IMG/VR virus record: IMGVR_UViG_3300033150_001234
Location: 1 to 64,000 of that record
Origin: a virus
Length of the DNA stretch: 64,000 nucleotides
Direction: 5' to 3' (one strand)
Shown: one piece after another, positions 17,307 through 48,740 of the stretch
Layout: every line of letters starts with the position of its first letter
How positions within the stretch are numbered: position 1 is the stretch's first letter
Program-made: the position numbers and the translations under genes
Notes under the pieces: generated by a model
What the model was told of the DNA's origin: nothing
Databases searched by the model: none
The model's input: the letters and a program-made list of their open reading frames with translations, nothing else

Positions 17307-18383
17307 ATGATAAAACCCAATATTGACTTATTAAAAAATTTAATGACAGTACCTTGTCCCAGTGGCTTTGAAGAAAAATTAGCAACTTATATTATAAAAT
17401 ATTTTAAAAATAAAAGGGGGAAAACATATATAGTCGAAAAAGATTTTCAAAATAATGTTATAGTAACTATTCCCGGTAAGGGTAAGGGTACAATAATGAT
17501 AGATGCCCATTTAGATGAAATAGGTTTTGTAGTAACAAATATTGACAGGGATGGTTTAATAAGTTTACAGTATATAGGTGGAGGGGATAGTAGTATTATA
17601 AGTGCAAGAGAGTTGATAATATTAACAGAAAAAGGAATTATTAATGCAGTTGTAAATAGAAAACATTCTCATTTAGTTACAGATGAAGAAGACGAAAATA
17701 TAATAAATATTCAAGATGCTCAAGTAGATATTGGACTTAGGGGAAGAAAGGCAGTATCAAGGGTTGTAAAAATTGGCGACCCTATAATTTATAAATCAAC
17801 GTTATTTCCATTATTGGGAAATGCATTATCAGGATATGGTTTTGATGATAAATCAGGCTGTTATATTTTAATGAGAGCGATTGAAGAATTAAGAAAAATG
17901 AAAAGAAAACCAATTCCTACATTAATATTTACTTTTAGTGCCCAAGAAGAAACTTGGGGCAGTAAAGCACATCCGTTGGTAATGAAATATAATCCAGATT
18001 TATTTATAGAGGTAGATGTAACATTTGCTACTGATTATGGTACTAATGATGAAATGGAAAGAGAAGTAGGTAGATGTAGATTGGGTCAAGGAATAGTATT
18101 ATATAGGGGCGTAGATATACATAAGGAAGGATTAAAGATAGCTGAGGGAGTAGCTAGAAGAAATAAAATAAAAATACAATATCAAGCAAGTACGGGTATG
18201 GCAGGTTATACTGCGACTGAAGTTACTAAATTATTAGGTACAAGAGCAATGATAGTAGGTATTCCATTAAGAAATATGCACTCCCCGGTAGAAATTATAG
18301 ATATAAGAGATTTAGAAGCGGGTTCAAAATTATTAAGTTATTTTTTATTAAGTAAAAAATTAGCTAAAGTGTTAGAAAAATAG
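17307..18383 (+). CDS. M42 family metallo-aminopeptidase
   Basis: PSGFE, DAHLDEIG, DDKSG, AQEE, VDVTFA, IPLRNMHSPVE. Confidence 0.93.
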   Translation: MIKPNIDLLKNLMTVPCPSGFEEKLATYIIKYFKNKRGKTYIVEKDFQNNVIVTIPGKGKGTIMIDAHLDEIGFVVTNIDRDGLISLQYIGGGDSSIISARELIILTEKGIINAVVNRKHSHLVTDEEDENIINIQDAQVDIGLRGRKAVSRVVKIGDPIIYKSTLFPLLGNALSGYGFDDKSGCYILMRAIEELRKMKRKPIPTLIFTFSAQEETWGSKAHPLVMKYNPDLFIEVDVTFATDYGTNDEMEREVGRCRLGQGIVLYRGVDIHKEGLKIAEGVARRNKIKIQYQASTGMAGYTATEVTKLLGTRAMIVGIPLRNMHSPVEIIDIRDLEAGSKLLSYFLLSKKLAKVLEK

Positions 18384-18396
18384 ATATTTAAAAAGG

Positions 18397-18404
18397 TTTC
18401 TTTA
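18397..18404 (+). promoter_or_regulatory. Candidate late-promoter motif TTTCTTTA (also 29594, 36811, 47248)
   Basis: Same 8-mer in four intergenic gaps heading virion modules. Confidence 0.55.
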
Positions 18405-29529: not shown

Positions 29530-29606
29530 AGAACCGCTCTTAAAGCCCTGCCCGTAATATTAATCTAAATATAAAATACCCACTTATTTATAGTTTCTTT
29601 ACTAAT

Positions 29607-29938: not shown

Positions 29939-30280
29939 ATGGCTAATTTGAACGATTTTTATCGAGGCGATACTAAAGTATATAATTTAACCTTCAAAGA
30001 TGGTGACGGCGTAGTGATAGACATTACGGGTTGGGTAATATTAATGACCTTTAAGGTAAGTCCACACGATGCTGATGCAGAAGCAGCAGTACAGGAAACA
30101 GCAGTATTAACAAATCCTACTGCAGGGGAAGCTAGGGTTACACTGTCATATGAGGTGACAGATGATTTACTCGGTAGATATTTTTACGGTATACAGGCTA
30201 AAAAAGAAGGTGGTAGTATAGGTACCGTAACAAGTGGTTTTGTTATTGTTAAATATGATGCAACAAGGAGTACAGTATAA
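29939..30280 (+). CDS. BppU N-terminal-like Ig-fold protein
   Basis: FYRGDT....TFKD.DG..IDITGW...T.K, G...VTLS...T, Y.YGIQ. Confidence 0.75.
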   Translation: MANLNDFYRGDTKVYNLTFKDGDGVVIDITGWVILMTFKVSPHDADAEAAVQETAVLTNPTAGEARVTLSYEVTDDLLGRYFYGIQAKKEGGSIGTVTSGFVIVKYDATRSTV

Positions 30281-33200
30281 TGCCAGAAGATATTAATGTA
30301 ACCATAACAGAAGAAACAATAGCTGTAGGGATAGAAGGTAGTTCTTTTTCAATTGCAATGATAGACATAACTGATGTTGACTTGACAGGGTTAGTCGATG
30401 GTAACTTATTACAATATAATCTAAGTACTAAAAAATGGGAAGTAGCAGATTATCCAACAAGTGCTATTTGGGGAAGTATTACAGGAACCCTAGACGACCA
30501 AACTGATTTACAAAATGCTTTAGATGCAAAAGCAGCTTTAATACACACACACACCGAATCAAATATCACAGATTTAGATAAATATACACAAGCAGAAGTA
30601 GATGCTTTAATTGCTGCAATCGGGAAGGGTTCTATAGCAGAACTATCTGATGTAGATGTTACTTTAATTGCTAATGATAAGATTTTAAAATATAATTCTA
30701 CCACTAGTAAGTGGGAATGCAAGGATGATAGTTCGGGTACAAGTGCTATTTGGGGAAATATTACAGGAACTCTTTCTAATCAAACAGATTTACAATTAGT
30801 TTTGGATGATAAAGCATCCTTAGTTCATACACATGTTGAAGCTAATATAACTGATCTCGATAAATATACACAGGCAGAAGTTAATTTGTTAGTCGCCAAT
30901 GCAAGTAATTGGGATTTGGCATATGGGTGGGGTGACCATGCTTTGGCTGGATATCTTACAGTTGAAACGGACCCAATATTTTTAGCCTCAGAAGCAGCTA
31001 ATTTTGCCGCAGGAGATAAATCGAAACTAGATGCAATAGAAGCAGGTGCAGAAGTAAACGTACAAAGTGATTGGGATGCGGTATCTGGTGATAGTAAAAT
31101 ATTAAATAAACCCACTATTCCAACAGCATTATCTGAATTAAGTGATGACTCTACACATAGATTAGTTACCGATTCAGAAAAATCAACTTGGAATGCTAAA
31201 TCAGATTTAACATTAACCGAAGTAAAGAGTGATGCTGATATAGCTTCTGCAATTTCATTAAAACACTCTAATGCTTTAGACCATGTTCAAAATAGTGACA
31301 CCGATTTAGACCCAACATTTGAAGCAACCTTTGTTAAAAAAGTTGACACCGTAAATGTATTGTCGGATATTACTTCAGCAGGAGCAGACATTGAAGATGC
31401 TGTTTCTAAAAAACATGACGGCGGAACCCAAGACACTGCAATAGGTTTAAATACTGCGCATAGGGGTTTGGTATCAGGTAACCCTCACAGTGTAACTCCA
31501 ACTGAATTATCTTTGGTTATTGGCACAGATGTACAAGCCTATGATGAAGCATTATCAAGTATCGCAGGATTAACTTATGTGACTGATTCATTTATTAAAA
31601 TGACAGCAGAAAATGTTTATGGAGTCAGAACAATAGCAGAAACAAAGTCAGATTTAAGTTTGAATAATGTAGATAATGTTCAGCAAATGCCATTAACTTA
31701 TTTAGATACAGATGCTACTTTAGCGGCAGATTCTGATGTAAGGGTTCCTTCACAAAAAGCAGCAAAAACTTATATCGATGCATTAATAGCAGCACAAGAC
31801 GCTATGGTTTATAAAGGAGTCATTGATGCAAGTGGTAATCCTAATTATCTTGCTGCAGATGCAGGTCATACATACAGAATTAGTGTGGCTGGAAAGATTG
31901 GTGGAGCTTCTGGAATAAATGTTGAAGTAGGTGATTTAGTACTGTGTAATACAGATAGTACGGCATCGGGTGACCAAGCTACCGTAGGAGCTTATTGGAA
32001 TATCATACAAACGAATTTAGATGGTGCTGTAATAGGCTGCGCGTCCGCTGTAGATAGTAATTTAGTAGCCTTTGATGGTGTTACGGGTAAACTAATCAAA
32101 GATTCTCTATTAACTTCGACTAATGTGTCTGATGCAGTTTCTAAAAAACACACACAAAATACTGATACAGATTTAGATTCTACATTTGAAGAAACCTTTG
32201 TTAAAAAACTAGATACAGTAAATGTACTTTCTGACATTACTTCACCTGGTGCTGATATTGAAGATGCAGTAACTAAAAAACACACTCAAGGTTCGGATAC
32301 AGCATTGGGGGCACAAGCAGAAAACCTTGATATGAATTCCCATAAAATAGTTTCATTATCTGTTCCAAGTTCTAATGGAGATTCAATTAGAGCTACAACT
32401 AAAATAACCGAAGCAAATTTAGAAAGTGCTATAGACTTAAAACATAGTAATGCAAGTGACCATACACAAGGAACTGACCAGAAATTAGATGATGGCGGTG
32501 CAAACGAAGTTACTGTAGCAAACGTAAAAGATGCTGTAGATAAAAAACACGCACAAAATAGTGACACCGATTTAGACCCAACATTTGAAGCGACATTTGT
32601 TAAAAAACTTGATACAGTTAATGTATTATCAGATATCACTTCACCTGGTGCTGACATAGAATCCGCAGTTAGTTTAAAACATGACGGCGGAACCCAAGAT
32701 ACTGCTATAGGTTTAAATACTTCACATAGAACCTCTAGTGGTGTTGACCATAGTTATATTGACCAAAGTGTAGTTAGCGGCGCAACCCCTGTTTTTGGAA
32801 TTGATAATCTTACTGATGGTGGTGGATTGGTTTTAATTACATCCACTCAAGAAACTCATTTTGAAACCGCTTATTCACATAGTCAGATTGTAGTAGGGAA
32901 TCCCCACGCAATCGATATTACAGACCTTACATCCTATGCGCATAATTCATTATCCAATTTAAACGAAGGAGAATATTTACATTTATCATCTGCTGAATAT
33001 GCTGCATTACATCCTGCGGTTACAGTAGCTGGAGCACCATTAACATTATCTACACAAGAAATAACCTTTAATTATGATAGTAATCATTTTGGATTAAGTG
33101 GAAATAATTTACAAATAAAAGAAGATGGAATTGATGAAACATTAATAGACTGGGGAGATGGAGCAAATCAAGTTAATTCAGACAGTATTCCTGACCATAA

Positions 33201-35475
33201 CGGTCATAGCATTTTAGATACCTTTAATCATATAATTAATAGGGGTAAAGCAGCAACAATAACAATTTCTTTAACAGGAGGATTGGGAATTAGTTGGACT
33301 TCAGGTGAAGTTTATGATAAAGCAAATTATTTATTTGTTGCTACAGATGCAGGAAGCGGTAATGTATCTGATAATAAAGTTAATTATCTTAAATGGGTTA
33401 GTGGAACCGCACTTACTATTTCTACTGATGGCACATCTGGTGATGAGATTTTAATAGCGAAAATTACTGTTTATGATGGTATTATAAATGGATACCGTGA
33501 AACAGTATTAGAGAATGAAACTGTAGCTAATACACGTAGAGCATTAAGGGAATCTTTTCCAACAAGGGTAATTAGCGGAATGGTTGTTAGTGAAGATACC
33601 AATGTTTATTCCCCTACAGCAGATTTAGATGTTATAATGAGTGCTGGAGTAGTATATAAAGATGGTATTGAAAGAGTAACACCAGTTGAAATTAAATCAC
33701 ATGATACTGTATTAGTAAGACATTTTCATACAGCAGGTGTATTAGATTATGATACTGATGATGAAGTCGATATGGCTAATTATGATAATCCAGATAAGGC
33801 TGGTGGGCAAGGATTAGAAGCACTTCCAGGTAATAAATGGGTTAAATCTTATTTTATTTTTATGAATGGTAAGATAGGTTGGATTTATCCAACAGAGTAT
33901 TTTAATACTAAGGCACAAGCATTAGATGCAGCTTTATCAGCTATACCTCCCGGATTAGCTATAGCTCCAAAATTAACTGCAATAGTTTATAATTCAAATG
34001 ATACAGATTTTACAAATACAATCTGGCAAGATATAAGAGCTGGAATAAGCGAAGAAAGTTTTAATTTAGTTACAAATCATAATGATTTAGCTGGTTTAGA
34101 TAGTGGTGATTATCAACATTTAACTCAAGCAGAACATGATGAATTAACTCAATGGATGGATGATGTTACTTTAGGCGCGAGTGGGTCATTAACCTTACCA
34201 ACAGGTCAAAATTTTACAATAGGTTCAACTCAATGGAATACTGGTGATAATATAGATGCTTCTAAATTATCAGGCACAATTCCCGCAGCAGTTTTACAAG
34301 CCGAATGGGATGCAGCTTATAGTCATATTTCAAACGATGGAACAGACCATTCTTATATTGACCAAGATTTACAACAAGCAGCAAGTCCTACTTTTGCGGG
34401 ATTAACAGTAACAAATGCTATTACAGAATTTTCAACTGACGGAACATTAGGTGATGATTCTGATTCAGCATTACCAACAGAAAAAGCTGTTAAAACATAT
34501 GTAGATAATGCTGTAAGCGGAGAAGATTTTTGGGATAGAGCAGACACAACATTAAGCCCCCATAATGCAAATGATAATGTAGATATTGGTTCAGGTGATT
34601 TTTTAACAACCGGAAAATTACAGATTAGAGATGCAAATATTTATATTAATTCAAATGATGATGGGCATCTTGATTTAACTGCCGATACTAGTATTGATTT
34701 AAATTCAAATACAAGTATATATGGTAGTTTACTAGTTGAAGAAACAAATTCAGGCGGATATGAATATGTTCAATTAAGAAACCTAGGTACATCTGGTTAT
34801 GGTATTGGTATAAATTTTTATGATGCTTACGCAGGAGGAACAGCTACTCCAAATATTAGAGCTATGATGAGAGGACAACCAAACGGTAGTCTTCCGGGTG
34901 GTAAGCTTGGTATATGGACAGCCGATTCCAATGATGTTTTACAAGAAAGATTATTAATAAATGCAAGTGGAACTTTAAGTATACCTACAACAGCGAAATT
35001 ACAATTAAGAGATGCTGGTATTTATATAAATTCAAATGATGATGGACACTTAGATTTAACAGCAGATACAAGTATAGATTTAAATTGTGATGTTGAGGTG
35101 TCTGGTGAAATAAATACAGTAGGGTGGACAGATTATTCAGGTACTACTATTGTTACTGGATTTTTATCTACTTCAGTTCTTCAAGTATATTTTAAAAAAA
35201 TAGGTAAGCTTGTTTTTTGTACATATTATATATCGGGTGTAAGTAATCTGGCAACTTTAACATTTACTGTTCCATATACTAGTAGTAATACAATAGATAA
35301 TTATACATTAGCTACACAAGCTTCTGATAATGGACATGCTTTAACTGCTCAAGCGATGGCGGTATTAGAAAAAAATTCTGCTATTGTTGATTGTTATAAA
35401 ACTATAGCAGCAGGGGCATGGACAGCAAGTGATACGAAATCAATATTAGGTCAATTTTGGTATGAAACATCTTAA
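30280..35475 (+). CDS. Large fibre protein (1731 aa) with internal repeats
   Basis: WG.ITGTL..QTDLQ x2, HTH.E.NITDLD x2, DTDLD.TFE.TFVKK.DTVNVLSDITS.GADIE x3, IYINSNDDGHLDLTADTSIDLN x2; receptor-binding-like C-terminus. Confidence 0.85.
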   Translation: MPEDINVTITEETIAVGIEGSSFSIAMIDITDVDLTGLVDGNLLQYNLSTKKWEVADYPTSAIWGSITGTLDDQTDLQNALDAKAALIHTHTESNITDLDKYTQAEVDALIAAIGKGSIAELSDVDVTLIANDKILKYNSTTSKWECKDDSSGTSAIWGNITGTLSNQTDLQLVLDDKASLVHTHVEANITDLDKYTQAEVNLLVANASNWDLAYGWGDHALAGYLTVETDPIFLASEAANFAAGDKSKLDAIEAGAEVNVQSDWDAVSGDSKILNKPTIPTALSELSDDSTHRLVTDSEKSTWNAKSDLTLTEVKSDADIASAISLKHSNALDHVQNSDTDLDPTFEATFVKKVDTVNVLSDITSAGADIEDAVSKKHDGGTQDTAIGLNTAHRGLVSGNPHSVTPTELSLVIGTDVQAYDEALSSIAGLTYVTDSFIKMTAENVYGVRTIAETKSDLSLNNVDNVQQMPLTYLDTDATLAADSDVRVPSQKAAKTYIDALIAAQDAMVYKGVIDASGNPNYLAADAGHTYRISVAGKIGGASGINVEVGDLVLCNTDSTASGDQATVGAYWNIIQTNLDGAVIGCASAVDSNLVAFDGVTGKLIKDSLLTSTNVSDAVSKKHTQNTDTDLDSTFEETFVKKLDTVNVLSDITSPGADIEDAVTKKHTQGSDTALGAQAENLDMNSHKIVSLSVPSSNGDSIRATTKITEANLESAIDLKHSNASDHTQGTDQKLDDGGANEVTVANVKDAVDKKHAQNSDTDLDPTFEATFVKKLDTVNVLSDITSPGADIESAVSLKHDGGTQDTAIGLNTSHRTSSGVDHSYIDQSVVSGATPVFGIDNLTDGGGLVLITSTQETHFETAYSHSQIVVGNPHAIDITDLTSYAHNSLSNLNEGEYLHLSSAEYAALHPAVTVAGAPLTLSTQEITFNYDSNHFGLSGNNLQIKEDGIDETLIDWGDGANQVNSDSIPDHNGHSILDTFNHIINRGKAATITISLTGGLGISWTSGEVYDKANYLFVATDAGSGNVSDNKVNYLKWVSGTALTISTDGTSGDEILIAKITVYDGIINGYRETVLENETVANTRRALRESFPTRVISGMVVSEDTNVYSPTADLDVIMSAGVVYKDGIERVTPVEIKSHDTVLVRHFHTAGVLDYDTDDEVDMANYDNPDKAGGQGLEALPGNKWVKSYFIFMNGKIGWIYPTEYFNTKAQALDAALSAIPPGLAIAPKLTAIVYNSNDTDFTNTIWQDIRAGISEESFNLVTNHNDLAGLDSGDYQHLTQAEHDELTQWMDDVTLGASGSLTLPTGQNFTIGSTQWNTGDNIDASKLSGTIPAAVLQAEWDAAYSHISNDGTDHSYIDQDLQQAASPTFAGLTVTNAITEFSTDGTLGDDSDSALPTEKAVKTYVDNAVSGEDFWDRADTTLSPHNANDNVDIGSGDFLTTGKLQIRDANIYINSNDDGHLDLTADTSIDLNSNTSIYGSLLVEETNSGGYEYVQLRNLGTSGYGIGINFYDAYAGGTATPNIRAMMRGQPNGSLPGGKLGIWTADSNDVLQERLLINASGTLSIPTTAKLQLRDAGIYINSNDDGHLDLTADTSIDLNCDVEVSGEINTVGWTDYSGTTIVTGFLSTSVLQVYFKKIGKLVFCTYYISGVSNLATLTFTVPYTSSNTIDNYTLATQASDNGHALTAQAMAVLEKNSAIVDCYKTIAAGAWTASDTKSILGQFWYETS
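31288..32720 (+). repeat. Three ~140-nt intragenic repeats (~31288, ~32155, ~32554)
   Basis: CAAAATAGTGACACCGATTTAGACCCAACATTTGAAGC identical in copies 1 and 3. Confidence 0.9.
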
Positions 35476-36783: not shown

Positions 36784-36855
36784 AAAGATAAAAAAAGTAA
36801 GCACATATAGTTTCTTTACTTTAAGGATATTTATAGTTAACTATTGGGAGAAAAA

Positions 36856-38105: not shown

Positions 38106-39086
38106 ATGTTAAACAAAGAACTCAAACTAAAAATCTTAAAGGGATTACTAGTTCCGGATGCAGTGGAAACTGAAGGTTCGGCTCAAGCTACAGGATTGTT
38201 ACCTAAACCTATTGCTGATGAGATGATTAAAGTTATTGAGGAAACTAATTATATGCGCAAGATTTTTCGCACTATAAAGGTTCCCGCTAGGACATTAACT
38301 ATTCCTACAGTTACTTTAGATTACTCAGGTGTTTTGCAGGCGAAGACAGGTTACGCACCAAGCGGCCTATCTAATACAGCACCATCGGTGGGTAGTATTC
38401 TTTTAGAACCGGGCAAATTAGCGGCTAAAGGAGCTCTTCAGATTGATGATATTAATGATTCTTCTGTTGATGTTATTGATTTGTTACTTCAGAATTTCGC
38501 TATAGCTTTTGGTAGAGCTGAAGAAAGGGCTATGTTATTGGGTGCCGAGAGAGATAGAACAAAGACTGCTTTGCTATCGATTTTCTTAGGACTCTATACT
38601 ATAGCAGCTGACCACTCAACCACTACTGCGGTTACATATAATCCTTCAACAGCTTATGCTGTTGCAGATTGTCTTAGTTCAGCTATTAAAGAACTGGGAG
38701 TATATGGCAGAAATAAAGGGGAGTTAGTACTAATTGCTTCACCTGATTTTTGTGATTATATGAGAAGGGATAAATCTCTAAGAGATAATATGTACGGTAG
38801 TGCTGAGGTTATTAGAAAAGGCGAATTACCTAAAGTTTTTGGAATCGAGATTTTAGAAACCACTTACTTAGACGGTCAAGGACAGGGTAGTAATAAAGCT
38901 TGTGCGATATTGATACCTAAAGCTGAAGCTATCATAGGTGACAGACGCCAGTTCAAAGTAACGCCAGACGCAGACCCAGCATCAGATGCAATGAATTACT
39001 ATGCTTATGAGAGTGTAGATTTCAGACTACAACATATGACCAGTTCAACTTATGACGCAATCGTGCTTATAGACCAGGCATCTTAA
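38106..39086 (+). CDS. Major capsid protein (HK97 fold)
   Basis: GLLPKPIA..MI, KLAA, DS..D....L...FA.AFGRAEE..ML.G, VFGIEI, IGDRR; strong AGGAGGT RBS after protease. Confidence 0.9.
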   Translation: MLNKELKLKILKGLLVPDAVETEGSAQATGLLPKPIADEMIKVIEETNYMRKIFRTIKVPARTLTIPTVTLDYSGVLQAKTGYAPSGLSNTAPSVGSILLEPGKLAAKGALQIDDINDSSVDVIDLLLQNFAIAFGRAEERAMLLGAERDRTKTALLSIFLGLYTIAADHSTTTAVTYNPSTAYAVADCLSSAIKELGVYGRNKGELVLIASPDFCDYMRRDKSLRDNMYGSAEVIRKGELPKVFGIEILETTYLDGQGQGSNKACAILIPKAEAIIGDRRQFKVTPDADPASDAMNYYAYESVDFRLQHMTSSTYDAIVLIDQAS

Positions 39087-39103: not shown

Positions 39104-39137
39104 TGGGAGCCGACAATTTTTGTTGGCTCTCAATTTT
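39104..39137 (+). terminator. Rho-independent terminator after capsid gene
   Basis: Stem GGGAGCCGACA/TGTTGGCTCTC followed by AATTTT. Confidence 0.75.
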
Positions 39138-39179: not shown

Positions 39180-40544
39180 ATGTTAAGATTGTCAGTAGCT
39201 CTTACGATTTATCACGTCAGAAAAGGTAAACTGATAGACCAAACAACTTCAACAGTAGTTACCCCATTTGAACCTCATCCATATGCATTAATTTATGCTA
39301 GTCATCTTTTTAATCGAGAATATCAAACGAAACTTATCAATAAATTAGTTAATAAAAATTTTATAATTATATATTTCTGCGATAAACTTCCCGATAATCC
39401 AATAATACATAAGAATATAATTTATATATTGTCTCCCTGGAGATATTTTGACACGAATACAATTCAAGATGTTAATTTATTCAGTTGTGTTTCAGGTACG
39501 GGTAGGAAAGGAAAAGTAGTAGCAGCGCAATATGCTAGAAAATTTCACAAACCTTTGATATATACGGTAGAGGACATTAAGAGAGTAACTAAGCAAATTG
39601 TCGAACGCAAAAATGAAAAGACGACTATATTATTTGATACCATATATCAATGTTCAGACAGAGGTTTGGGCGACATTTTAATGACCACTGCTATCTTAGA
39701 AGGATTAAAGAAAAAATTTAATGCCGATATTACTTATGTGTGTAAACCGAGAGCAGTACCTTTATTAGAATGTAATCCAACTATTTCAAAAGTAATCACT
39801 AAATATGAAGATGCAGATGTAATGAACTATACGTACCATTTACCCCTCATACGACATACTGAAGATTATAAAATAGTTAGGAATCGTCAAAACAGATATG
39901 ATTCTATGCAAGAACTTTTCATGATAAATCTAGCAGATAAAGACAAGCATCCAAAATTTTATTTAACCGAGGCCGAATCAACGTGGAGTTGCGAACAAAT
40001 ATCAGAAGACAATAGTAACATCAAGATAGGCATAAACGTAGAAGCCACCTCACCGTCAAGACGCTGGACATACGATTACCTATTAAAGTTAATGACTTTA
40101 TTGAATAGAAGTAATAAATATACTTTTGAGATATATCTATTTGGGCAAGGTCAATTCATTAAGTTAGATGATAGAGTGCCCGTAGATATAAATAACTATG
40201 TTGGAAAAACAACTCTAAGACAGATGATTGCACTTACCTCCAGGATGGATGTGGTACTAGCTGCGGATTCATTATATGGACATATTGCTGCAATATTTGA
40301 CATACCTTCAGTAATAATATATACGGTAATTCCAGCAGAATGGCGAAATAAATATTATAGAAGTATAGGTATTCAGGGTAAAACTAAGTGCTGTCCGTGC
40401 ATTGACTTTCAGTTTGTTTCACAAGAGGATTATATGAATTGCAATAGATACGGTAATCCTCCATGTGTTAAAACTATTACCCCTTATAAGGTATTAGACA
40501 GTATTTATAAATGTATTAAGAAATATAAGGTGGCTAAAAGATGA
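39180..40544 (+). CDS. Glycosyltransferase family 9 (heptosyltransferase-like) with N-terminal extra domain
   Basis: RGLGDILMTT, LLECNP.I..VI, RRW, GKTTLRQ, ADSLYGHIAA...PSV. Confidence 0.88.
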   Translation: MLRLSVALTIYHVRKGKLIDQTTSTVVTPFEPHPYALIYASHLFNREYQTKLINKLVNKNFIIIYFCDKLPDNPIIHKNIIYILSPWRYFDTNTIQDVNLFSCVSGTGRKGKVVAAQYARKFHKPLIYTVEDIKRVTKQIVERKNEKTTILFDTIYQCSDRGLGDILMTTAILEGLKKKFNADITYVCKPRAVPLLECNPTISKVITKYEDADVMNYTYHLPLIRHTEDYKIVRNRQNRYDSMQELFMINLADKDKHPKFYLTEAESTWSCEQISEDNSNIKIGINVEATSPSRRWTYDYLLKLMTLLNRSNKYTFEIYLFGQGQFIKLDDRVPVDINNYVGKTTLRQMIALTSRMDVVLAADSLYGHIAAIFDIPSVIIYTVIPAEWRNKYYRSIGIQGKTKCCPCIDFQFVSQEDYMNCNRYGNPPCVKTITPYKVLDSIYKCIKKYKVAKR

Positions 40545-41575
40545 AACCAAAAAGAGCATTAATATTACACGCCAATAATGATTATAATTCAGGAGATTTA
40601 CTTACATATTGGGGAACAAAGTATTTGCTCACTAAAGCTCTTCAAGGTGCTCAAAATTTAGATATTGTACAATTTGACATGATAAGAGCACATGATACCG
40701 AGCCTAAAACCTATATTAAAGAGTACGCATGGGGAGATATAGATATAATAGTCTTGGCAGGTTCTCCCTGGATATGGAATACATGTGATAAAAGTAAAAA
40801 ATATAAATTGTTAACAGATGCTCTTAAGAGATGGCCCAAAGCTAAAGTTATAGGTTTAGGAATAGGTAGCTGTTTTAGCAATGAAGTTTATAGAAATATG
40901 AGACAGGATGAGGTGGATAGATACTTTTTCAATGACCCCACTAGAAAGCAGCGGCTACATGATATTTATAAAAGGTTTAATTACATACTGGTAAGAGATA
41001 ATTTTGCTAAATATATTTTAGAAAGATGTAATGTAAAATCAACTTATTCTTATGATACTAGTATTTTTGCGCATCATAGATTTGGAAAAAGTAAATATAA
41101 AGGTCAAAGGAAGAAAAGAGCTTTATTTTTTTATAAGCCGGACGACGGTATATCTAAAAATTGTTTAAACTTTAAAGCTAGTGAGTATATTCAGTTTCAA
41201 TTAGATTGGGCTAAAAAATATAATGCAGATATTTATTGTAATGGTGTGGGGGAAAAGATTTTTTTAGAAGATAAGGGTATTAAAGCGTCCTTTTCAGTAG
41301 ATTTAGATTTTTTATCTAGTAAATTTACAGAATATAACGATTTATTATCTGGTAGAGTTCACATGGCAATATTAGGTTTTATGACGGGTATACCCAATAT
41401 TACCTTGTTACCCATAGATACTAGATTTATGACAGTATTGAAGTTTGGTATTACTTTAAAGTTTGTGGGACATTCTTTTAATTACTCACCTATTAAAGTA
41501 GCTCCAGCTATTTGGAAGGACATTAATAAGGAAGAGGTAAAAATTATTAAGGGGATTAGAAATGCGATTGCATGA
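40541..41575 (+). CDS. Polysaccharide pyruvyltransferase-like protein
   Basis: NSGD, GLGIG, ILVRD, SGRVHMAI....GIP, DTRF. Confidence 0.8.
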   Translation: MKPKRALILHANNDYNSGDLLTYWGTKYLLTKALQGAQNLDIVQFDMIRAHDTEPKTYIKEYAWGDIDIIVLAGSPWIWNTCDKSKKYKLLTDALKRWPKAKVIGLGIGSCFSNEVYRNMRQDEVDRYFFNDPTRKQRLHDIYKRFNYILVRDNFAKYILERCNVKSTYSYDTSIFAHHRFGKSKYKGQRKKRALFFYKPDDGISKNCLNFKASEYIQFQLDWAKKYNADIYCNGVGEKIFLEDKGIKASFSVDLDFLSSKFTEYNDLLSGRVHMAILGFMTGIPNITLLPIDTRFMTVLKFGITLKFVGHSFNYSPIKVAPAIWKDINKEEVKIIKGIRNAIA

Positions 41576-42140
41576 AAAAACCTTAATTTTAAAGTATTTA
41601 ACAAAAGATATTACACCTGAGAATGGTATAGATATAGGATGTGGACCACGTATAAAAAAGGGACAAAATTGTGACGGTCAAGAATTTCAGGGAAAACTAT
41701 TGGGGGTAGATAAAAATAGATTATTTGAGCCCGACTTATGTTGCGACATTTTAGATATAAATAAACATATCAACCCTAGTTCTCTTAAATTAGTCACATT
41801 TGTGCATACGTTAGAAGATTTAGAAAATCCATATGAATGTTTAAGAAGATTAATCAAACTCATAGCTAAAGACGGTATATTAATTATTATTTGTCCATAT
41901 CGGGGTAAATATCCGCGTATAGGCACTAAAAACGCTAACGGTGGGCATAAGTTTGACTTTGACCCGCATGATGTTGAATATATGTTGTGGAGGACATTCG
42001 TTAAACAAAAATCGAACTATAGGACGCTGAGCGTAAATACATTGGGCACAGATTCCTTTGAAGTTATTATACAGAAAAAATTTGTTAAATTAAATTATAA
42101 GTATTGGCCAGGACATCAAATGTGTGATGATAAGGAGTAA
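41562..42140 (+). CDS. Class I SAM methyltransferase
   Basis: IDIGCG, GVD, HTLEDL.NP, G.LIIICP. Confidence 0.85.
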   Translation: MRLHEKTLILKYLTKDITPENGIDIGCGPRIKKGQNCDGQEFQGKLLGVDKNRLFEPDLCCDILDINKHINPSSLKLVTFVHTLEDLENPYECLRRLIKLIAKDGILIIICPYRGKYPRIGTKNANGGHKFDFDPHDVEYMLWRTFVKQKSNYRTLSVNTLGTDSFEVIIQKKFVKLNYKYWPGHQMCDDKE

Positions 42141-42143
42141 AAC

Positions 42144-43250
42144 ATGGAAGCTAAGGAAATTTGTCTAATAGATGCGGGAATTAATGGCAAGGAAATATTC
42201 TTTAAATTTTCAGGCTTAGAAAAGCTATTTAATGTTACGGAAATTGTAATAAAATATGATGATAATGTAGATTTTTTATCTAGTGATGTATTGGCTAATA
42301 TGTTCTTATCATTTACATTGCCCGTGCTTGCAAGAATAGTGTCTAATAATATTATATTAAAAACAAAATTAAAACTTCATAACGATACAAAATTATTTTG
42401 GGAGAGGTATATAAATAAGGTTCAAAAATATAATAAACATTTGGGTATTTTTAATTTAAAATTAGATGCTGATATAATCACGAACCATGAGGTATTGTAT
42501 AACCCTGAAAAACCATCCAAAATTGCTGTTCTCTATGGTGGGGGGGTTGAGAGTAATTATACTCTAGCAAGTTTTATTTCTTTGAAACCAATATTACTTG
42601 TTTTTGAAGGTAAAAACTATATGAATAATCGCACTGGGCAAAACCAAATAAAACAACAACTTTTAGACGAAGTTTGTAAAGAAAATAATATAGAATATAA
42701 GAGAGTTTATGTACCATTTCGAGAGGAAAATGTATCGATAATGACCGAAGTAGATTTTAATAATTTCTTAATGGGTCCATTATTTTACTTTCTATCTTTA
42801 CCCATTATAAAAAGACATAATATTTCAATAATATTTTCGGGCCAAGAGCAAGAAGATTTACCTCCCTTTCACTCTACTACTATTTGGGATTATTCTTTTA
42901 GTTCACACTTTATTAATCAACTATATATAGGTAATGGACCGACGATGAAGGGCTTTGGGGGATATGCGAGTAAATGCAGTTTAATATATGATTTATATCA
43001 CTTATTTCCAAAGTTTTATAAGTATATTTATAGTTGTTATTGTTGCGGCAAAGATAGGTGGGAAGGCAAATGCTTAAAATGTAATCGAATTGCTTATTAT
43101 TGTGATAAATTAAAATTGGACAAAAAACCTCTAGGATTACCTGATACAATAACGAATGAACTTATTAGTCCAGAAGTATTATTAGCAGAGAAGAAAAAAT
43201 ATTTGAAAAATTGTGATGAGTTTGCTAGAAATTTAGGATTTGGTAAATAA
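42144..43250 (+). CDS. PP-loop/adenine nucleotide alpha-hydrolase-like protein (MurL/QueC-like)
   Basis: AVLYGGGVES (variant of SGGxDS), YSCY...W.GKCLKC.R. Confidence 0.55.
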   Translation: MEAKEICLIDAGINGKEIFFKFSGLEKLFNVTEIVIKYDDNVDFLSSDVLANMFLSFTLPVLARIVSNNIILKTKLKLHNDTKLFWERYINKVQKYNKHLGIFNLKLDADIITNHEVLYNPEKPSKIAVLYGGGVESNYTLASFISLKPILLVFEGKNYMNNRTGQNQIKQQLLDEVCKENNIEYKRVYVPFREENVSIMTEVDFNNFLMGPLFYFLSLPIIKRHNISIIFSGQEQEDLPPFHSTTIWDYSFSSHFINQLYIGNGPTMKGFGGYASKCSLIYDLYHLFPKFYKYIYSCYCCGKDRWEGKCLKCNRIAYYCDKLKLDKKPLGLPDTITNELISPEVLLAEKKKYLKNCDEFARNLGFGK

Positions 43251-43273
43251 TAGAGAAAAGAAGGCGATTAGAG

Positions 43274-44629
43274 ATGGCTTTAAATGAACTACAGCAAAGA
43301 CTAATAGGTGAGACTTATCCTCACAATCATAGGTATGAATTTGATGACCAGTTTAACTTAACTCCCATTGGTCAGATAGTAAGGCGAGACAAATTATGGG
43401 ATGATAAATTTGCTAACATAATAAAAGAATCTAAATCATTTTTAAGCCTCGGGAGCAATAAGGGGTATTTTTGTTTTAAAATGAATAAATCAGGATTAAG
43501 AACAGTCGGGGTGGAGCCGAGTAAAAGCCAAGTTGATTTATGCAGTGATATAGTAAAATACTTTAAATTAGAGAACATTAGCTTTATTAGGTCAGAATTC
43601 AATAAGAAAGTATTAGCGCAGTTAGACGGTTATGATTTAGTTTACATGGGCAACATGTATCACTACATCTTTAATCAATTTCATAATCATCAACCTATTT
43701 GGGAATTACTGTATAAGATAGCGAATAAATATATTATATTTGAGAATCCCTTAGATAATACAGATACAGTAGTTCAAGGAAACTTTTTTAATCCTGATAG
43801 ACCAAAAAATCTATGGTGTCCAGATGTCCAAAGGGAATACACTAAAGAGAAATTCCTACAAGTAGTTAGCCAGTATTTCACTATACAGGATTTAGGAGTC
43901 TCAGCTACTTCCAGTACAAGAAATCTTTATTTATTGACACGAAAAGGACCGGGACTTAGAAAAAGGGAGGATTTTAAGTTACTTAATAACTTGTCTAAAG
44001 TAGAAATTTATTCTGCTATTGATAATATCACTAATAGAAAAGTGTGTGTTAAATTTCTAGGAACTAAGGAGAAACCAATAAATCAGTTTTTATTCTATGA
44101 GGAACATTTGAGAGGCCTGTGTATATTAAATAAAAGAGGACTATCTCCAGAGATATACGCAATTATTTTAAATCAAGACAAAGAAATAATTGGATATTCA
44201 ATGGAACTCATTGAAGATTTTAATTTGGGTAGGTGGATTAAATTCCTTAAGGAGAAACCACTTGAAGAGAGAAAGCAAATTGTAATTAAAATACTGAATT
44301 CTCAGGTTATTTTATTACAAAATAATTTAGTTATGACAGATATAACTATTAGCAATACAATAGGTAATGATGATAAATTTTATATTATAGACGCTGAAAG
44401 TTGGCAATCTATTGAGCATATGCAATATTTAATAGACAAAGACAGTGTTTATGACCTTGCTTTAATAATTGTTAAACTTGAAAGAATAATCTTAAGGTTG
44501 TTAAGCCTGAGAGGTTATACTAAATCAGGAATAGAAAAATGTTTTCAACAGATGACGTGTAAATCTTTAATATCTGAAAATTTTTATTTAGATTTAATTA
44601 AGGTTATAGAGAGGTATCAAGATGAATAA
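43274..44629 (+). CDS. Methyltransferase-kinase fusion (WbdD-like architecture)
   Basis: N-half FLSLGSNKGYF, VGVEP, YDLV..GNMYHY, IIFE; C-half VCVKF, PEIY, MELIE, TDITISN, YIIDAE. Confidence 0.75.
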   Translation: MALNELQQRLIGETYPHNHRYEFDDQFNLTPIGQIVRRDKLWDDKFANIIKESKSFLSLGSNKGYFCFKMNKSGLRTVGVEPSKSQVDLCSDIVKYFKLENISFIRSEFNKKVLAQLDGYDLVYMGNMYHYIFNQFHNHQPIWELLYKIANKYIIFENPLDNTDTVVQGNFFNPDRPKNLWCPDVQREYTKEKFLQVVSQYFTIQDLGVSATSSTRNLYLLTRKGPGLRKREDFKLLNNLSKVEIYSAIDNITNRKVCVKFLGTKEKPINQFLFYEEHLRGLCILNKRGLSPEIYAIILNQDKEIIGYSMELIEDFNLGRWIKFLKEKPLEERKQIVIKILNSQVILLQNNLVMTDITISNTIGNDDKFYIIDAESWQSIEHMQYLIDKDSVYDLALIIVKLERIILRLLSLRGYTKSGIEKCFQQMTCKSLISENFYLDLIKVIERYQDE

Positions 44630-45443
44630 AGCAAAATTAGCTGTATGGATAGTTGTAAGAGATGATGTATATTATATTGACATGGCAATAAAGAGTGTAC
44701 TGCCATATGTAGATAGTATTTATATTCTTGATAATGGTTCAACAGATGGCACCCTTGAACTTATTGAGTCTTTTAAGAGTGATAAAATATTTTTAGAAAA
44801 AATAAAATATGATTTTGACAAGGCTGACTTTGATAAAGGGTATCACACCTGGAATCACCCTTATTGGATGTGGGATGAGACCAAGGACGGTAATAGTATG
44901 GAAGCACAAACAAGGAATCAGTGCATGAAGAATTGCATAGAGAAATTTAAACCCGACTGGTTGATACAATTAGATGCAGATGAGGTTTATACCCCGTTGT
45001 TTTTTGCACAGTTAAAGCAGCATGATTTAAGTAAGATAGTGGCTATTAGACATTCGACAGACAATTTTATCACCCCGAATTATATTATGAGGAGACCAAA
45101 CCAGGATTGCTTTGACCCGCATCACAGGTCCTGGAATCCAACCCTAGATATTAGTTGGAAAAAGACGAGTAAGACTTGCGGACATGTAGCACCAGATATG
45201 AGTAAGTTCACCGAAGGTAAGATTTGGATGGATGGTATTGTACACGTACACTTACACAGAACATTTGGCCCAAAGTGTGAGAAGTATTGGGGTGCAGAGA
45301 GGGAAGCGAATAAATTATATAATCCAAAAAATATAAATCCTGAACTCTTTGATGGTCTTATAAAAAATGCTAAAAAGGTTAACTTTAATTGGGATGAATT
45401 ATCTTTTGTACTTGAAAAATGGAAAAAGTGGGGTATAGTATAG
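44622..45443 (+). CDS. Glycosyltransferase family 2
   Basis: SVLPYVD.IYILDNGSTDGT, RN, WLIQLDADE. Confidence 0.9.
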   Translation: MNKAKLAVWIVVRDDVYYIDMAIKSVLPYVDSIYILDNGSTDGTLELIESFKSDKIFLEKIKYDFDKADFDKGYHTWNHPYWMWDETKDGNSMEAQTRNQCMKNCIEKFKPDWLIQLDADEVYTPLFFAQLKQHDLSKIVAIRHSTDNFITPNYIMRRPNQDCFDPHHRSWNPTLDISWKKTSKTCGHVAPDMSKFTEGKIWMDGIVHVHLHRTFGPKCEKYWGAEREANKLYNPKNINPELFDGLIKNAKKVNFNWDELSFVLEKWKKWGIV

Positions 45444-46030
45444 TGGATATAAATAAATACGAAAATTATGAAAAAGAACCCTTTGCTGCATGTGAAAATC
45501 CGGATGTACCAATGGGAAAATGGTTATTGAAAAATTTGCAGACCAAACCAAACACACTTTTAGATGTAGGATGTGGAATAGGTGTACATACAAAATGGTT
45601 TAATGAACAGGGTATAATTACTCAAGGTATTACGGTAAATTCAAAAGAGGTTGAGAAAAGAATACATAAAAATGTTCAATTGGGTAATATGCTGAGTATT
45701 CCTTTCGAAGATAGTACATTCGATTGTGTATTCTGTCTGGGTACTCTTGAGCACACACACTCTCCCTTTATAGCGTTAAGTGAATTTAATAGGGTGCTTA
45801 AAGATTCAGGTTATTTATTTTTAGACATGTGTGGTATTAACTGTATGATGGTTATTAATAAAATTTATTGGTATCATAAGAATGTACTTTTTCCAATACA
45901 AATACGGGATATGCTCCTCAGGTCAAATTTTGAATTAGTAGGTGGGAGTTGGAATGAGACTATAAAGGAAGATGGTACATATACAAGTGTGGCAAGGGCA
46001 CATTATTTAGCAAAGAAGTTAGAGGTATAG
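45419..46030 (+). CDS. Class I SAM methyltransferase (type 11)
   Basis: LLDVGCGIG, IPFEDSTFD, LEH, RVLKDSG. Confidence 0.92.
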   Translation: MEKVGYSIVDINKYENYEKEPFAACENPDVPMGKWLLKNLQTKPNTLLDVGCGIGVHTKWFNEQGIITQGITVNSKEVEKRIHKNVQLGNMLSIPFEDSTFDCVFCLGTLEHTHSPFIALSEFNRVLKDSGYLFLDMCGINCMMVINKIYWYHKNVLFPIQIRDMLLRSNFELVGGSWNETIKEDGTYTSVARAHYLAKKLEV

Positions 46031-46031
46031 T

Positions 46032-47222
46032 ATGCAATTAATTTTAATACTCCCCAAAAATAGTTTTTTAGATGAAGACAATTTCGTGCCTCCATTGGGA
46101 TTATTATATGTTGCCGCTGCGTTAAAGCCATCTTTTAAGTTAATAAAAATTTTAAGTTGGGAAAAGGGTTTAAGATATTCTTTTCAAAAAGAAGATATAC
46201 TTGGATTTGGGGGAAGTAGTATACATGAAGAGCAATTTCAAGAATTGGGTAAGCGGTTTCAAGGAATATTTAAAATAGCCGGTGGACCACTGCCCTCCAT
46301 ACGTCCTAAGAAGATTCAGGATTACGGTTTTGATATAGTAGTTACTAGAGAAATAGAAGGCATAGTAGAATTATTGATAGAAAAGATTTTAAAACGTGAA
46401 AAGGGGATTATACGGGGACACCCTAACTTTAAATTAGATGATATTCAAACCATAGACTTCTCATTAGTGGAAAATAAGTTTAATTTTTCCAAGCGTTTGC
46501 CCGTTATGACATCAAGAGGTTGTCCATATAAGTGTGCATTTTGTGCAAAGATTATAGATAAGGTCAGATTAAGAAACGTAGTTAGTTTAAGAAAAGAAAT
46601 AGAAGTATTGAAGGAAAAATATAATCCAAAAATGTTCATATTTTATGATGATAATATCTTAATGAGTAAGCCGCGATTCATACAATTATGTAAAGAATTA
46701 CAAAAGATAAAGATTGCTTGGAGGTCTCAGGCTCGTAGTGATTATGTAGATAGTACTGTTATAAAATATGCACTAGATGCAGGCTGTAAATATCTAAGTT
46801 TTGGAATAGAGAGTGGTAGTCAAAAAATTTTAAATGTTGTAAATAAGTCAAATAGTGTACAAACAAACACAAAAGCGATAAGTATCTGCAAAAAACTAGG
46901 TTTAAAGACTAAGGTTTTCTTAATGATTGGCTTACCAGGTGAGACATTAGACACATTGGAGGCTACCAAAAAATGGGTATTGGAGAATCAACCTGATAGA
47001 GTAAGTCTTTATATATTCCATCCCTTTCCGGGATGTGACATTTATGAGAATATTCAACAATATGATATTCAAATAGTGGGTAAACAAATGAATTATTATG
47101 CAGGGAAAGGAAGCTCTTCACCCTGCATCATTAGGACATCCCATCTAACTTCTACAGAGTTACAGCAGGCTAGAGAAGAGATGGTTAAGTTGTTCCAAAA
47201 AAACGATATTATAGTTTATTAG
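46032..47222 (+). CDS. B12-binding radical SAM protein
   Basis: PPLGLLYVAA, GGP.PS, TSRGCPYKCAFC, YDDN, GIESGSQ, IGLPGET. Confidence 0.93.
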   Translation: MQLILILPKNSFLDEDNFVPPLGLLYVAAALKPSFKLIKILSWEKGLRYSFQKEDILGFGGSSIHEEQFQELGKRFQGIFKIAGGPLPSIRPKKIQDYGFDIVVTREIEGIVELLIEKILKREKGIIRGHPNFKLDDIQTIDFSLVENKFNFSKRLPVMTSRGCPYKCAFCAKIIDKVRLRNVVSLRKEIEVLKEKYNPKMFIFYDDNILMSKPRFIQLCKELQKIKIAWRSQARSDYVDSTVIKYALDAGCKYLSFGIESGSQKILNVVNKSNSVQTNTKAISICKKLGLKTKVFLMIGLPGETLDTLEATKKWVLENQPDRVSLYIFHPFPGCDIYENIQQYDIQIVGKQMNYYAGKGSSSPCIIRTSHLTSTELQQAREEMVKLFQKNDIIVY

Positions 47223-47271
47223 GTGTAAAATAGGTTATGCTAAATATTTTCTTTATATAAGAGGTATAAAC

Positions 47272-47874
47272 ATGGATATTCTACTTATTTTGAATAAACT
47301 CGATTTAGAGTGTAAGATGTTTAATAAGGATTTATTAGAATTTACATTAGCTAGATTAGAACCCGTCTATAGGGTTAAAATCTATACAGATGAGAAAATA
47401 ATACCTAGATATGTAGAAGAGAAGTGCATTAAAGCGACCAATAAGATGGAAGCTGCCAGTAAGTTTGCAGAAGGGAAGGAAGAATTTATTATTATATCTA
47501 GATTATCTTTGACTAATATAAATTTTGGAGGCTTAATAACATATCATAGAAACCACACTAAAAAGGTAACAGTAGTTGCTAAAAATTTTGTAGTTAATAA
47601 ATCAATACCTATTTATAAATTAGATGATAAGAAAAATATAACAGCAGTAACTAGAAAGAGATTTGCAGATTGTGGAATTTATTTATTTAAAAAAGGAATT
47701 GATTTTAAAAAATATAAAAATATTTTCACAATTATTCTAGATATGATTGATAAAAAAGAAATTAAGGGATTTATACATAAGGGATATTTTTGGACATCTC
47801 ATAACACAAAAAGAGAGAGAAATCATGGTATTGTTAACACGAGCAGAAGTCGCAGACATATTGGGAATAAGTGA
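47272..47874 (+). CDS. Degenerate sugar-phosphate nucleotidyltransferase-like protein
   Basis: TNINF..LI.YH, DCGIYLF, HKGYFW; lacks the N-terminal GGxGTR motif. Confidence 0.55.
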   Translation: MDILLILNKLDLECKMFNKDLLEFTLARLEPVYRVKIYTDEKIIPRYVEEKCIKATNKMEAASKFAEGKEEFIIISRLSLTNINFGGLITYHRNHTKKVTVVAKNFVVNKSIPIYKLDDKKNITAVTRKRFADCGIYLFKKGIDFKKYKNIFTIILDMIDKKEIKGFIHKGYFWTSHNTKRERNHGIVNTSRSRRHIGNK

Positions 47875-48418
47875 TACGAGTATTCCCTGGGATGTGGTTA
47901 CTTGGGCAGAAGAAGAAGTTAAGAAACTAACAGGTAAATCATATACTGAAGTTTCTACAAGTAAGACATTCTGCTTACGTATGGACAAACAGGCATATTT
48001 AGATTTACCAGACATGAATATTACCGAAGTTACAAAGATAGAATATTCAACTGATAATGGAGATACTTGGAATGAAATAGTAGGTGAATACTGGTATTTT
48101 GAGGATGAGGGTATAGTAGTATTTGATTTTTTATTAACTGAGTTATATTTATATAAAGTTACTTATAAATACGGTAAATGTGCAGTAGACCCTTTAGAAA
48201 AAAAATTACAATTTCTATTAGTATTCAAATACTTATTAAATTATAAACCTGATTTATTCACAGGCGATACTGAAACAAAGCAAGAAAAAATCGGGGATTA
48301 TGCAATCACATATAATGTACAATCTGCAGTATCGAAACCAGAATTAATTAATAAAGATATAGCAGAATTGAAGAGAGTAATGGGGGCCGGAGACGGTTTC
48401 TCGTATGGGATGATGTAA
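47825..48418 (+). CDS. Head-tail adaptor
   Basis: LLT.AEV, AEE.VKKLTG, VTYKYG, EKIGDYAITY; position before head-closure gene. Confidence 0.75.
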   Translation: MVLLTRAEVADILGISDTSIPWDVVTWAEEEVKKLTGKSYTEVSTSKTFCLRMDKQAYLDLPDMNITEVTKIEYSTDNGDTWNEIVGEYWYFEDEGIVVFDFLLTELYLYKVTYKYGKCAVDPLEKKLQFLLVFKYLLNYKPDLFTGDTETKQEKIGDYAITYNVQSAVSKPELINKDIAELKRVMGAGDGFSYGMM

Positions 48419-48419
48419 G

Positions 48420-48740
48420 ATGATAAGTACTTATTTTAATAAAAGTGCAACACGTACTAGAAAGTCAGTAGTAAGTACAAATGATTTTGGAGAACCAACT
48501 TTTAGCGATAACACATCTGCAAGTTTTGATTGTGCTTTACAACCCGATAATGGTGATTATACGGTAGAGGAATCGGGTAAGGTAATAACAAGTACACATA
48601 GACTTTATTGTGCAATTACAGTAGATATAACTCAGGGTGATATAATTACAATAGAAAGTGAAAAGTATAAAGTATTAGCTGTAATGGATGACGCCGGACG
48701 AGGAAATCATCTGAAAATAATGTTAAGGATAGTGAGCTAA
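48420..48740 (+). CDS. Head-closure protein
   Basis: NDFGEP, CALQP, DITQGDII, Y.V..V.D......HL. Confidence 0.78.
   Translation: MISTYFNKSATRTRKSVVSTNDFGEPTFSDNTSASFDCALQPDNGDYTVEESGKVITSTHRLYCAITVDITQGDIITIESEKYKVLAVMDDAGRGNHLKIMLRIVS

Follow-up and report, generated by a model that had tools for sequence, protein, structure and literature searches.

What would a phage gain from nine genes for glycan-modifying enzymes placed inside the run of genes that builds its own particle? This question is raised by IMG/VR virus record IMGVR_UViG_3300033150_001234, in which nine open reading frames (ORFs, here o1 to o9) occupy positions 39180-47874 between the gene for the major capsid protein and the genes for the neck. 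The record is 91,306 bp long, complete and has direct terminal repeats, and the window (the whole stretch of DNA analysed here, 64,000 nucleotides) is its initial 64 kb. To our knowledge, phage-encoded virion glycosylation has been documented only in some actinobacteriophages, where it shields the particles from antibodies. Overall, the analysis settled how this cassette is organised. The reading favoured here, with a rough probability of 0.5, is that the cassette attaches a short tailored glycan to a protein of the virion, the capsid protein being the first candidate.

The initial annotation had described a nine-gene block between the capsid and neck genes, and all nine ORFs were confirmed at these positions, all on the plus strand and with intergenic gaps of -25 to +49 nt. 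The block had also been called tightly coupled within the virion gene run. Its position and packing bore this out, but it was not fused to the capsid gene: the 93 nt that separate o1 from that gene contain a hairpin. Family-level support was obtained for seven of the nine proteins: a family 9 glycosyltransferase (GT9), a PS_pyruv_trans protein, a family 2 glycosyltransferase (GT2), a Methyltransf_11 protein, a Radical_SAM protein with class B neighbours, and two proteins with methyltransferase-like N-terminal domains, one of which scored below threshold. The earlier labels therefore held for the GT9, the pyruvyltransferase, the GT2, the methyltransferase o7 and the methyltransferase-kinase, but were softened for o3 (sub-threshold), for the PP-loop protein (weak) and for the B12 domain of the radical enzyme (weak match). 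As a set, the enzymes still read as glycan synthesis and tailoring with methyl, pyruvyl and methyl-phosphate capping. None of the nine proteins (0/9) had a transmembrane-like segment, and no match to a flippase, polymerase, priming transferase or lipid carrier was found among them in Pfam, NCBIfam or PHROG, which argues for cytoplasmic, carrier-free chemistry. The enzyme set points to a short glycan that would be assembled straight on an acceptor in the cytoplasm before being capped and decorated.

Related loci were gathered by capsid-based and GT9-based scans of IMG/VR, which gave 17 distinct viral loci with capsid identities of 37-94%; this comparative set is made up of metagenomic fragments. 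A scan of species genomes added one further locus (L032), an 80.9-kb contig (JBHLKP010000003.1) binned in a Hodarchaeota metagenome-assembled genome (MAG), which shares the whole head module. In each of the 17 viral loci, and likewise in L032, the capsid gene is followed by a GT9 gene whose product has an N-terminal extension, and a homologue of o9 lies immediately 5' of the adaptor gene in every contig that reaches that far. The span of the anchors was 2.0 kb in L024, where GT9 and o9 stand alone, 5.9 kb in L004 and L005, 8.7 kb in the window and 9.2-9.4 kb in L008 and L010. When the proteins of eight cassettes were clustered, 32 families resulted, 19 of them present in a single locus and only GT9 and o9 universal; the window's six middle families were all private to its own lineage in this clustering. 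The variable genes encode a second GT9 domain, a sulfotransferase, an FkbM methyltransferase, LicD, a small cytidylyl/adenylyltransferase, a short-chain dehydrogenase/reductase (SDR), a GNAT protein and a PhnW/AepZ-like aminotransferase. The suggestion that a variable glycosyltransferase block would recur between the capsid and neck genes of related contigs was borne out across the 17 viral loci and L032. By analogy with bacterial surface-polysaccharide loci, fixed anchors around a variable middle suggest that an exposed structure is under diversifying selection.

It was considered whether the block might be a recent passenger or a product of misassembly; both were ruled out by the complete record, by G+C content and third-position G+C content (GC3) that match those of the neighbouring phage genes, and by anchors that diverge in step with the capsid gene; the clade-wide conservation of the cassette's position leads to the same rejection. 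Likewise, the block did not resemble a bacterial lipopolysaccharide (LPS) locus at high identity, since this type of GT9 was found only in the phage clade, the composition is phage-like and divergence tracks that of the capsid.

Several further observations were made on these loci. GT9 starts 67-164 nt after the capsid gene, or about 700-940 nt after it in loci with a small inserted gene, for example one for an HNH endonuclease. In L005 an HNH/NUMOD3 homing endonuclease occupies this place (L005:11051-11620), and gaps of similar size (700-940 nt) or small ORFs were seen in L003, L006, L028 and L031. The GT9 proteins of L003 and the window are 79% identical, against 92-94% for the neighbouring capsid gene and o2, a pattern that looks like local mosaicism near the insertion site. 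In L015 and L016, hhalign of the GT9 profile against the genes after the capsid gene gave no match; the closely related L032 has GT9 domains. The head module of L032 ('Candidatus Hodarchaeota' MAG; locus 1-20879) includes portal, MuF, protease and a capsid protein at 39% identity, its cassette has an intact nucleotidyltransferase as well as two GT9 domains, and the same contig encodes a bacterial-type RecA and a ThyX-like protein. L032 probably comes from a phage and was assigned to the Asgard MAG by a binning error. LicD and the small cytidylyl/adenylyltransferase were located at L010:6633-9141 and L008:11646-13214, L010 adding the PhnW/AepZ-like aminotransferase (6.5e-36), and these genes suggest a decoration of phosphocholine, phosphoglycerol or aminoethylphosphonate type in the two loci.

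The conserved left anchor, o1 (39180-40544, plus strand), is a GT9-family glycosyltransferase (PF01075, 1e-9, 38.5 bits against a cut-off of 22; 39.6 bits in a six-frame search). An AlphaFold (AF2) model built from 11 clade members had a mean predicted local distance difference test (pLDDT) score of 79 and showed the GT9 (GT-B) fold, with Z scores of 24.5 to 3tov, 22.3 to WaaF (1psw), 20.8 to WaaC (2h1h) and 19.6 over 307 residues to TibC, the unrelated GT-B structures that come next after the GT9 proteins scoring about 14. At the sequence level o1 and TibC gave no match. The N-terminal extension of about 150 residues was predicted by the AF2 model to form a beta-hairpin and an alpha/beta domain, not a beta-barrel, and this extra domain is confined to the phage clade. 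Near the C-terminus a four-cysteine motif (C404, C407, C421, C429) is conserved at a position comparable to that of the TibC iron-finger. This motif was considered as proof of a TibC-like protein heptosyltransferase and rejected, as it was also found in an unrelated bacterial GT2-GT9 fusion. A word-index search for o1 homologues returned only this phage clade and two weak outliers, and a search of the GT9 alignment against 185,579 species genomes found none. It is proposed that o1 is the priming transferase. In L008 and L010 the cassette also holds an SDR and a nucleotidyltransferase that is rfaE-domain-II-like or TagD-like (9e-24 to 5e-26, ambiguous between both).

The right anchor, o9 (47272-47874, plus strand), was conserved as a sugar-1-phosphate nucleotidyltransferase fold, with whole-length template modelling (TM) scores of about 0.8 (0.76-0.81 to NTP_transferase clusters of the Atlas) between models that were predicted on both sides. 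It had been labelled a degenerate NTP-transferase, and this description proved apt: the fold is kept, while the G-rich loop (GGxGTR(L)) and the GD motif are lost. Where the orthologue in L032 reads LAGGKGTR, the window reads ILNKLDLECK; throughout the window's subclade the LAGGKGTR loop and 11 adjacent residues are gone and the GD motif reads SRL. Identity within the subclade is 54-59%, so that o9 is still under constraint. As the most distant contig, L032, keeps the canonical loop, o9 appears to be a degenerated descendant of an active nucleotide-sugar synthase, and in the window's subclade it is probably a non-catalytic partner.

Between the anchors, o2 (40541-41575, plus strand) is polysaccharide pyruvyltransferase-like (PF04230, PS_pyruv_trans, 1.3e-10, 42.1 bits against 25.3, covering positions 1-276 of 280), with homologues at 23% identity in L004 and L005. 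The next gene, o3 (41562-42140, plus strand), encodes a small putative methyltransferase dependent on S-adenosylmethionine (SAM), a weak assignment with a sub-threshold match to Methyltransf_23 (3.5e-5, 24 bits against 27). For o4 (42144-43250, plus strand), a candidate PP-loop-like adenylating enzyme, no Pfam, NCBIfam or PHROG match was found; the label is weak, as a profile match is absent and the motif reads YGGGVES against the SGGxDS of PP-loop proteins. It draws on this motif, a C-terminal cysteine cluster and language-model and structure neighbours in the Atlas that are QueC-like and MurL-like, and the AF2 model (pLDDT 44) was too poor for a structure search. The protein is conserved in P0154 (95%) and P0155 (67%). 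In one Atlas neighbour cluster (Planctomycetota, 635 residues) an o4-like domain is fused to a PS_pyruv_trans domain, which hints that o4, as a PP-loop-like adenylating enzyme, may act together with its neighbour o2, on the product of that pyruvyltransferase.

The fifth gene, o5 (43274-44629, plus strand), encodes a WbdD-like bifunctional methyltransferase-kinase. As a single sequence it matched WbdD with an E value of about 1, whereas a profile of 13 family members searched against the PDB gave Escherichia coli WbdD as the top match (5e-20) over both domains, in order (methyltransferase 2.9e-13, kinase 2.2e-3). The kinase residues D356 and D373 are invariant and N361 is nearly so. The protein ends at residue 451 with no coiled-coil ruler and no amphipathic or hydrophobic tail, and the kinase alignment stops near residue 390 of WbdD chains (471-569 residues). 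Word-index searches with o4 and o5 returned close relatives only; a full HMMER scan of 1.84 billion representatives gave 206 relatives of o5, several of which span both halves.

A GT2 (GT-A) glycosyltransferase was assigned to o6 (44622-45443, plus strand) from PF00535 and PF13704, both just over their cut-offs, and phrog_13126, with the motifs YILDNGSTDGT and LDADE and the DAD at residue 118. A class I SAM methyltransferase is encoded by o7 (45419-46030, plus strand; PF08241, Methyltransf_11, 6.7e-18), and o8 (46032-47222, plus strand) is a radical SAM enzyme, probably of class B (PF04055, Radical_SAM, 2.6e-19, 70 bits) with the CxxxCxxC motif CPYKCAFC at residue 164. The best NCBIfam neighbours of o8 are all B12-radical SAM families; the matches to HpnJ, PhpK and BchE-type models reached 1e-29 to 1e-35, all far below the family cut-offs, and the B12-domain match was weak (PF02310, 16.4 bits against a cut-off of 32.1). 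It is probably a C- or P-methyltransferase.

The hairpin in front of the cassette (39104-39132, plus strand) has a G+C-rich stem of 13 bp followed by a short U-run, with a minimum free energy (MFE) of -24.7 kcal/mol and z = -4.59. A consensus terminator scan did not call it, as its U-run has only 4 T. A hairpin with a U-tract was found at the same site in six of the six relatives tested (7/7 loci with the window), in sequences that are non-homologous. Since the sequences differ at a conserved site, a conserved terminator or attenuator function is indicated, and the element between capsid gene and GT9 is best described as terminator- or attenuator-like.

Taken together, the cassette is most likely late-expressed, cytoplasmic and part of the head module across a clade of uncultured siphophages, and a pathway can be proposed in which each step is inferred from family membership. 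The terminator-like hairpin 3' of the capsid gene would hold the enzyme levels far under those of the capsid protein. With its extra N-terminal domain o1 would recognise the acceptor and attach the first sugar from a nucleotide sugar; ADP-heptose is the donor of other GT9 enzymes. The chain would be extended by o6, a pyruvate ketal would be added by o2, and its carboxylate may then be activated by the PP-loop-like o4. O- and C-methyl groups would come from o3, o7 and the B12-radical SAM enzyme o8, and the WbdD-like o5 would end the chain by phosphorylating the terminal sugar and methylating the phosphate. Descended from a nucleotide-sugar synthase that once would have supplied the GT9, o9 has lost its catalytic motifs and would probably serve as a non-catalytic partner. 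With the anchors fixed and the middle exchanged between lineages as in bacterial O-antigen loci, related phages would differ in surface chemistry. A more tentative extension, held at somewhat under even odds, is that the clade diversifies its own particles through a 'serotype locus' that resembles an O-antigen locus, close relatives displaying chemically different glycan coats. The GT9 and the (pseudo)nucleotidyltransferase would then be the fixed flanks in the head operon, and the tailoring genes swapped between them would provide methyl-phosphate capping, sulfation, pyruvylation, LicD-type addition of a phospho-alcohol or phosphonate, and radical C-methylation.

The choice of a virion protein as the best-supported acceptor comes from gene context: the cassette stays in the head module throughout the clade while the replication module is exchanged, being of DnaE type in the window's phage and of PolA type in a viral record (G001) with 70% capsid identity. 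In G001 (L019:11123-15909) the primase-helicase is directly followed by a family A polymerase fused to uracil-DNA glycosylase (UDG). At the same position in the window's genome (63165-72431) a nucleotide module and a UDG-fused DnaE were found. Judged from these genes, the replicase has been swapped between the two phages with the UDG fusion retained. In favour of a virion acceptor also count the relationship of o5 to WbdD, the presence of the protein-acting TibC in the GT9 family and the precedent of Corndog-type mycobacteriophages.

Several points weigh against a virion acceptor. The capsid protein shows no obvious Ser/Thr-rich tail, and members of the GT9 family that act on protein cannot be told by fold from those that act on LPS, TibC scoring slightly lower than the LPS enzymes. 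The acceptor assignment has gene context behind it, and position may be historical as much as functional; Che8-type phages glycosylate their capsids from glycosyltransferase genes at the far end of the genome (PMC11256854). In addition, the genome carries a modified-pyrimidine module, whole-genome scans with three models (PF00534, PF13692 and PF00535) found no glycosyltransferase beyond the cassette, and DNA glycosylation likewise takes place late, before packaging (PMC13326640).

The last of these points lead to an unlikely but serious alternative, in which the DNA of the phage is itself hypermodified by the cassette. A pyrimidine with a hydroxyl group from the nucleotide module at 64.8-73.4 kb would be glycosylated by the GT9 before packaging and then tailored, o9 would ancestrally have supplied the nucleotide sugar, and the variable middle would reflect an arms race with restriction enzymes and DNA glycosylases. 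The genome does hold a ThyX-like gene, a deoxynucleoside monophosphate kinase, a small thymidylate-synthase-fold gene, an SDR and a UDG-fused polymerase, and a ThyX-like gene and a kinase are also on the cassette-bearing contig of L032. However, G001 (70% complete) has the cassette while its primase leads straight to the polymerase and the nucleotide module is absent from the syntenic place. Anionic sulfate, phosphate and pyruvate would also be expected to add charge to packaged DNA, a sugar on the phage DNA is itself putative, and we know of no GT9 enzyme that acts on DNA. In phages known to glycosylate their DNA, a glycosyltransferase is accompanied by a MurU-like nucleotidyltransferase and the modification is late, which fits the alternative, but these glycosyltransferases mostly cluster with thymidylate-synthase-like and kinase genes, whereas here the two modules are at least 17 kb apart (PMC13326640). 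No relatives of the small thymidylate-synthase-fold protein were found in a search of viral contigs, and no match was found for it in the records of five relatives (21-70% complete). An RmlD/SDR-type sugar-nucleotide enzyme lies in the nucleotide module (genome 66954-67781; L017:2954-3781), distant from the cassette, and could feed either pathway.

It is rather improbable that the cassette acts late in infection on a glycan of the host envelope, remodelling it at the membrane's inner face. Possible targets would be the LPS core, O-antigen on its lipid carrier or teichoic acid, for example through premature capping of O-antigen by the WbdD-like o5, and progeny would be kept off debris or rival phages excluded. 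The closest characterised relatives of o1 (WaaC, WaaF), o5 (WbdD) and o2 (CsaB/WcaK type) do act on envelope glycans, but the proteins lack a membrane anchor, amphipathic tail or WbdD-like coiled coil (o5 being 451 residues long), and the cassette keeps its place in the head module clade-wide. The clade-confined N-terminal domain of the GT9 would be left unexplained, phage seroconversion genes are usually linked to lysogeny, and an LPS target would have to presuppose a host with LPS. Finally, a non-virion protein or a soluble metabolite derived from a nucleotide sugar is a very improbable target. Pathways for natural products do contain class B radical SAM and PP-loop enzymes, methyltransferases and kinases, but the combination of two glycosyltransferases and an enzyme that ends the chain suggests that a glycan is built on an acceptor, and the anchoring in the head module and late operon argues against a free metabolite.

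The phage genome has a G+C content of about 31% and nearly all of its genes are on the plus strand. The late genes run from an M42 peptidase through a probable terminase, portal, Laminin_G_3 protein, MuF-like protein, a 1,731-residue repeat protein, a metallo-beta-lactamase (MBL)-fold protein, prohead protease and HK97 capsid protein to the nine-ORF block, and then to the adaptor, head completion protein, tape measure and tail genes. Beyond 63 kb lie the replication genes (primase, nucleotide module, UDG-fused DnaE, ThyX-like gene, RecA and SbcCD-like genes). The left flank of the cassette and candidate acceptor, the major capsid protein with HK97 fold, is encoded at 38106-39086 (plus strand; PF05065, 5e-14). 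On the right flank are the head-tail adaptor (47825-48418, plus strand; phrog_442, 1e-6), whose start is uncertain between ATG at 47825 and TTG at 47747, and the head completion protein (48420-48740, plus strand; PF05521, 5e-5). Megablast and tblastn searches among 50,697 deposited phage records gave no match for either the nine-gene block or the capsid protein; one weak GT9 match came from an uncultured 595-kb phage. No tRNA genes were found in the phage sequence. The bacterial-type domains of RecA, DnaB-like helicase, primase and polymerase suggest that the host is a bacterium.

The M42 aminopeptidase gene (window 17307-18383) is just 5' of the probable terminase gene. The Laminin_G_3 protein after the portal has 749 residues (window 22162-24411), and the 1,731-residue protein (window 30280-35475), with phage-tail-repeat motifs, is inside the head gene run; both are possible surface or decoration proteins and hence alternative glycan acceptors. 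The sequence TTTCTTTA was observed in 30 copies against 14.8 expected, most of them on the minus strand. Four plus-strand copies stand 13-33 nt 5' of a gene start: those at window 47248-47255 (o9), 36811-36818 (protease gene), 29594-29601 (ORF at 29607) and 18397-18404 (probable terminase gene). A sigma-70 promoter scan showed no enrichment.

If a virion glycan is indeed the product, virion glycosylation would extend from a few actinophages to a programmable and diversifying trait of uncultured phages, which would diversify the surface chemistry of their particles as bacteria diversify O-antigens. The cassette would also provide soluble, carrier-independent versions of otherwise membrane-associated enzymes, such as a free-standing WbdD-like capper and a GT9 with a new targeting domain, and a compact toolbox for capsid glycoengineering. 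If the acceptor were DNA, no DNA-glycan pathway so far would be as elaborate as this one.

Among known systems, giant viruses (chloroviruses and Mimivirus) glycosylate their capsids or fibrils autonomously (PMC8456856). They resemble the cassette in that virus-encoded glycosyltransferases occur with methylating enzymes, and the glycans of Mimivirus are also pyruvylated; their hosts are eukaryotic, and their capsids and enzymes are unrelated. The clusters for glycosyl-5-hydroxycytosine and 5-hydroxymethylcytosine (5hmC) hypermodification of DNA in RB69, DLP3 and RL38J1 share the pairing of a glycosyltransferase with a MurU-like nucleotidyltransferase and action before packaging, but use GT4/BshA-like glycosyltransferases, mostly beside a thymidylate-synthase-like gene and a kinase, whereas the present cassette is in the head module (PMC13326640). 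The GT-B fold of o1 is common to WaaC and WaaF, which act on LPS, and to TibC and AAH of the BAHT family of protein O-heptosyltransferases (PMC4358343). TibC, itself a GT9-family protein O-heptosyltransferase, carries its iron-finger as four cysteines (Cys-339, 342, 358 and 370) inserted in the C-lobe (PMC4358343), and like o1 it has an extra N-terminal domain and a four-cysteine motif before the last helix; its N-terminal domain is a beta-barrel, whereas that of o1 is predicted to be alpha/beta. WbdD of E. coli O9a (PDB 4azs, 4azw and 4uw0) shares with o5 the order of methyltransferase then kinase and the catalytic Asp and Asn residues of the kinase, but identity is low, and its coiled-coil ruler and membrane-binding C-terminus are both absent from o5.

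A close parallel is the virion glycosylation of the mycobacteriophages Corndog, Che8 and Myrna (Freeman et al. 2023, cited in PMC11600133 and PMC12619734), which likewise involves phage-encoded glycosyltransferases and a sugar methyltransferase; in the present phages such a set is conserved in the lineage. In Corndog, a TylF-like sugar O-methyltransferase (gene 35) and three glycosyltransferases modify the capsid and the tail tube (PMC11600133), and genes 35-38 are inside the head gene run, just 5' of the head protease gene. The premise of the initial annotation that glycosyltransferases in structural operons glycosylate actinophage virions thus holds for the Corndog type, beside the protease gene, but not for the Che8 type, with its genes at the far end of the genome. 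The locus described here differs from the mycobacteriophage systems in a priming enzyme that would be a GT9, in seven further tailoring or accessory genes including the WbdD-like, pyruvyltransferase and B12-radical SAM genes, in the low G+C content of the phage, and in its fixed anchors and hypervariable middle across an uncultured clade. Overall, the cassette is a much richer variant of phage-encoded glycosylation than these, and the comparative result is new.

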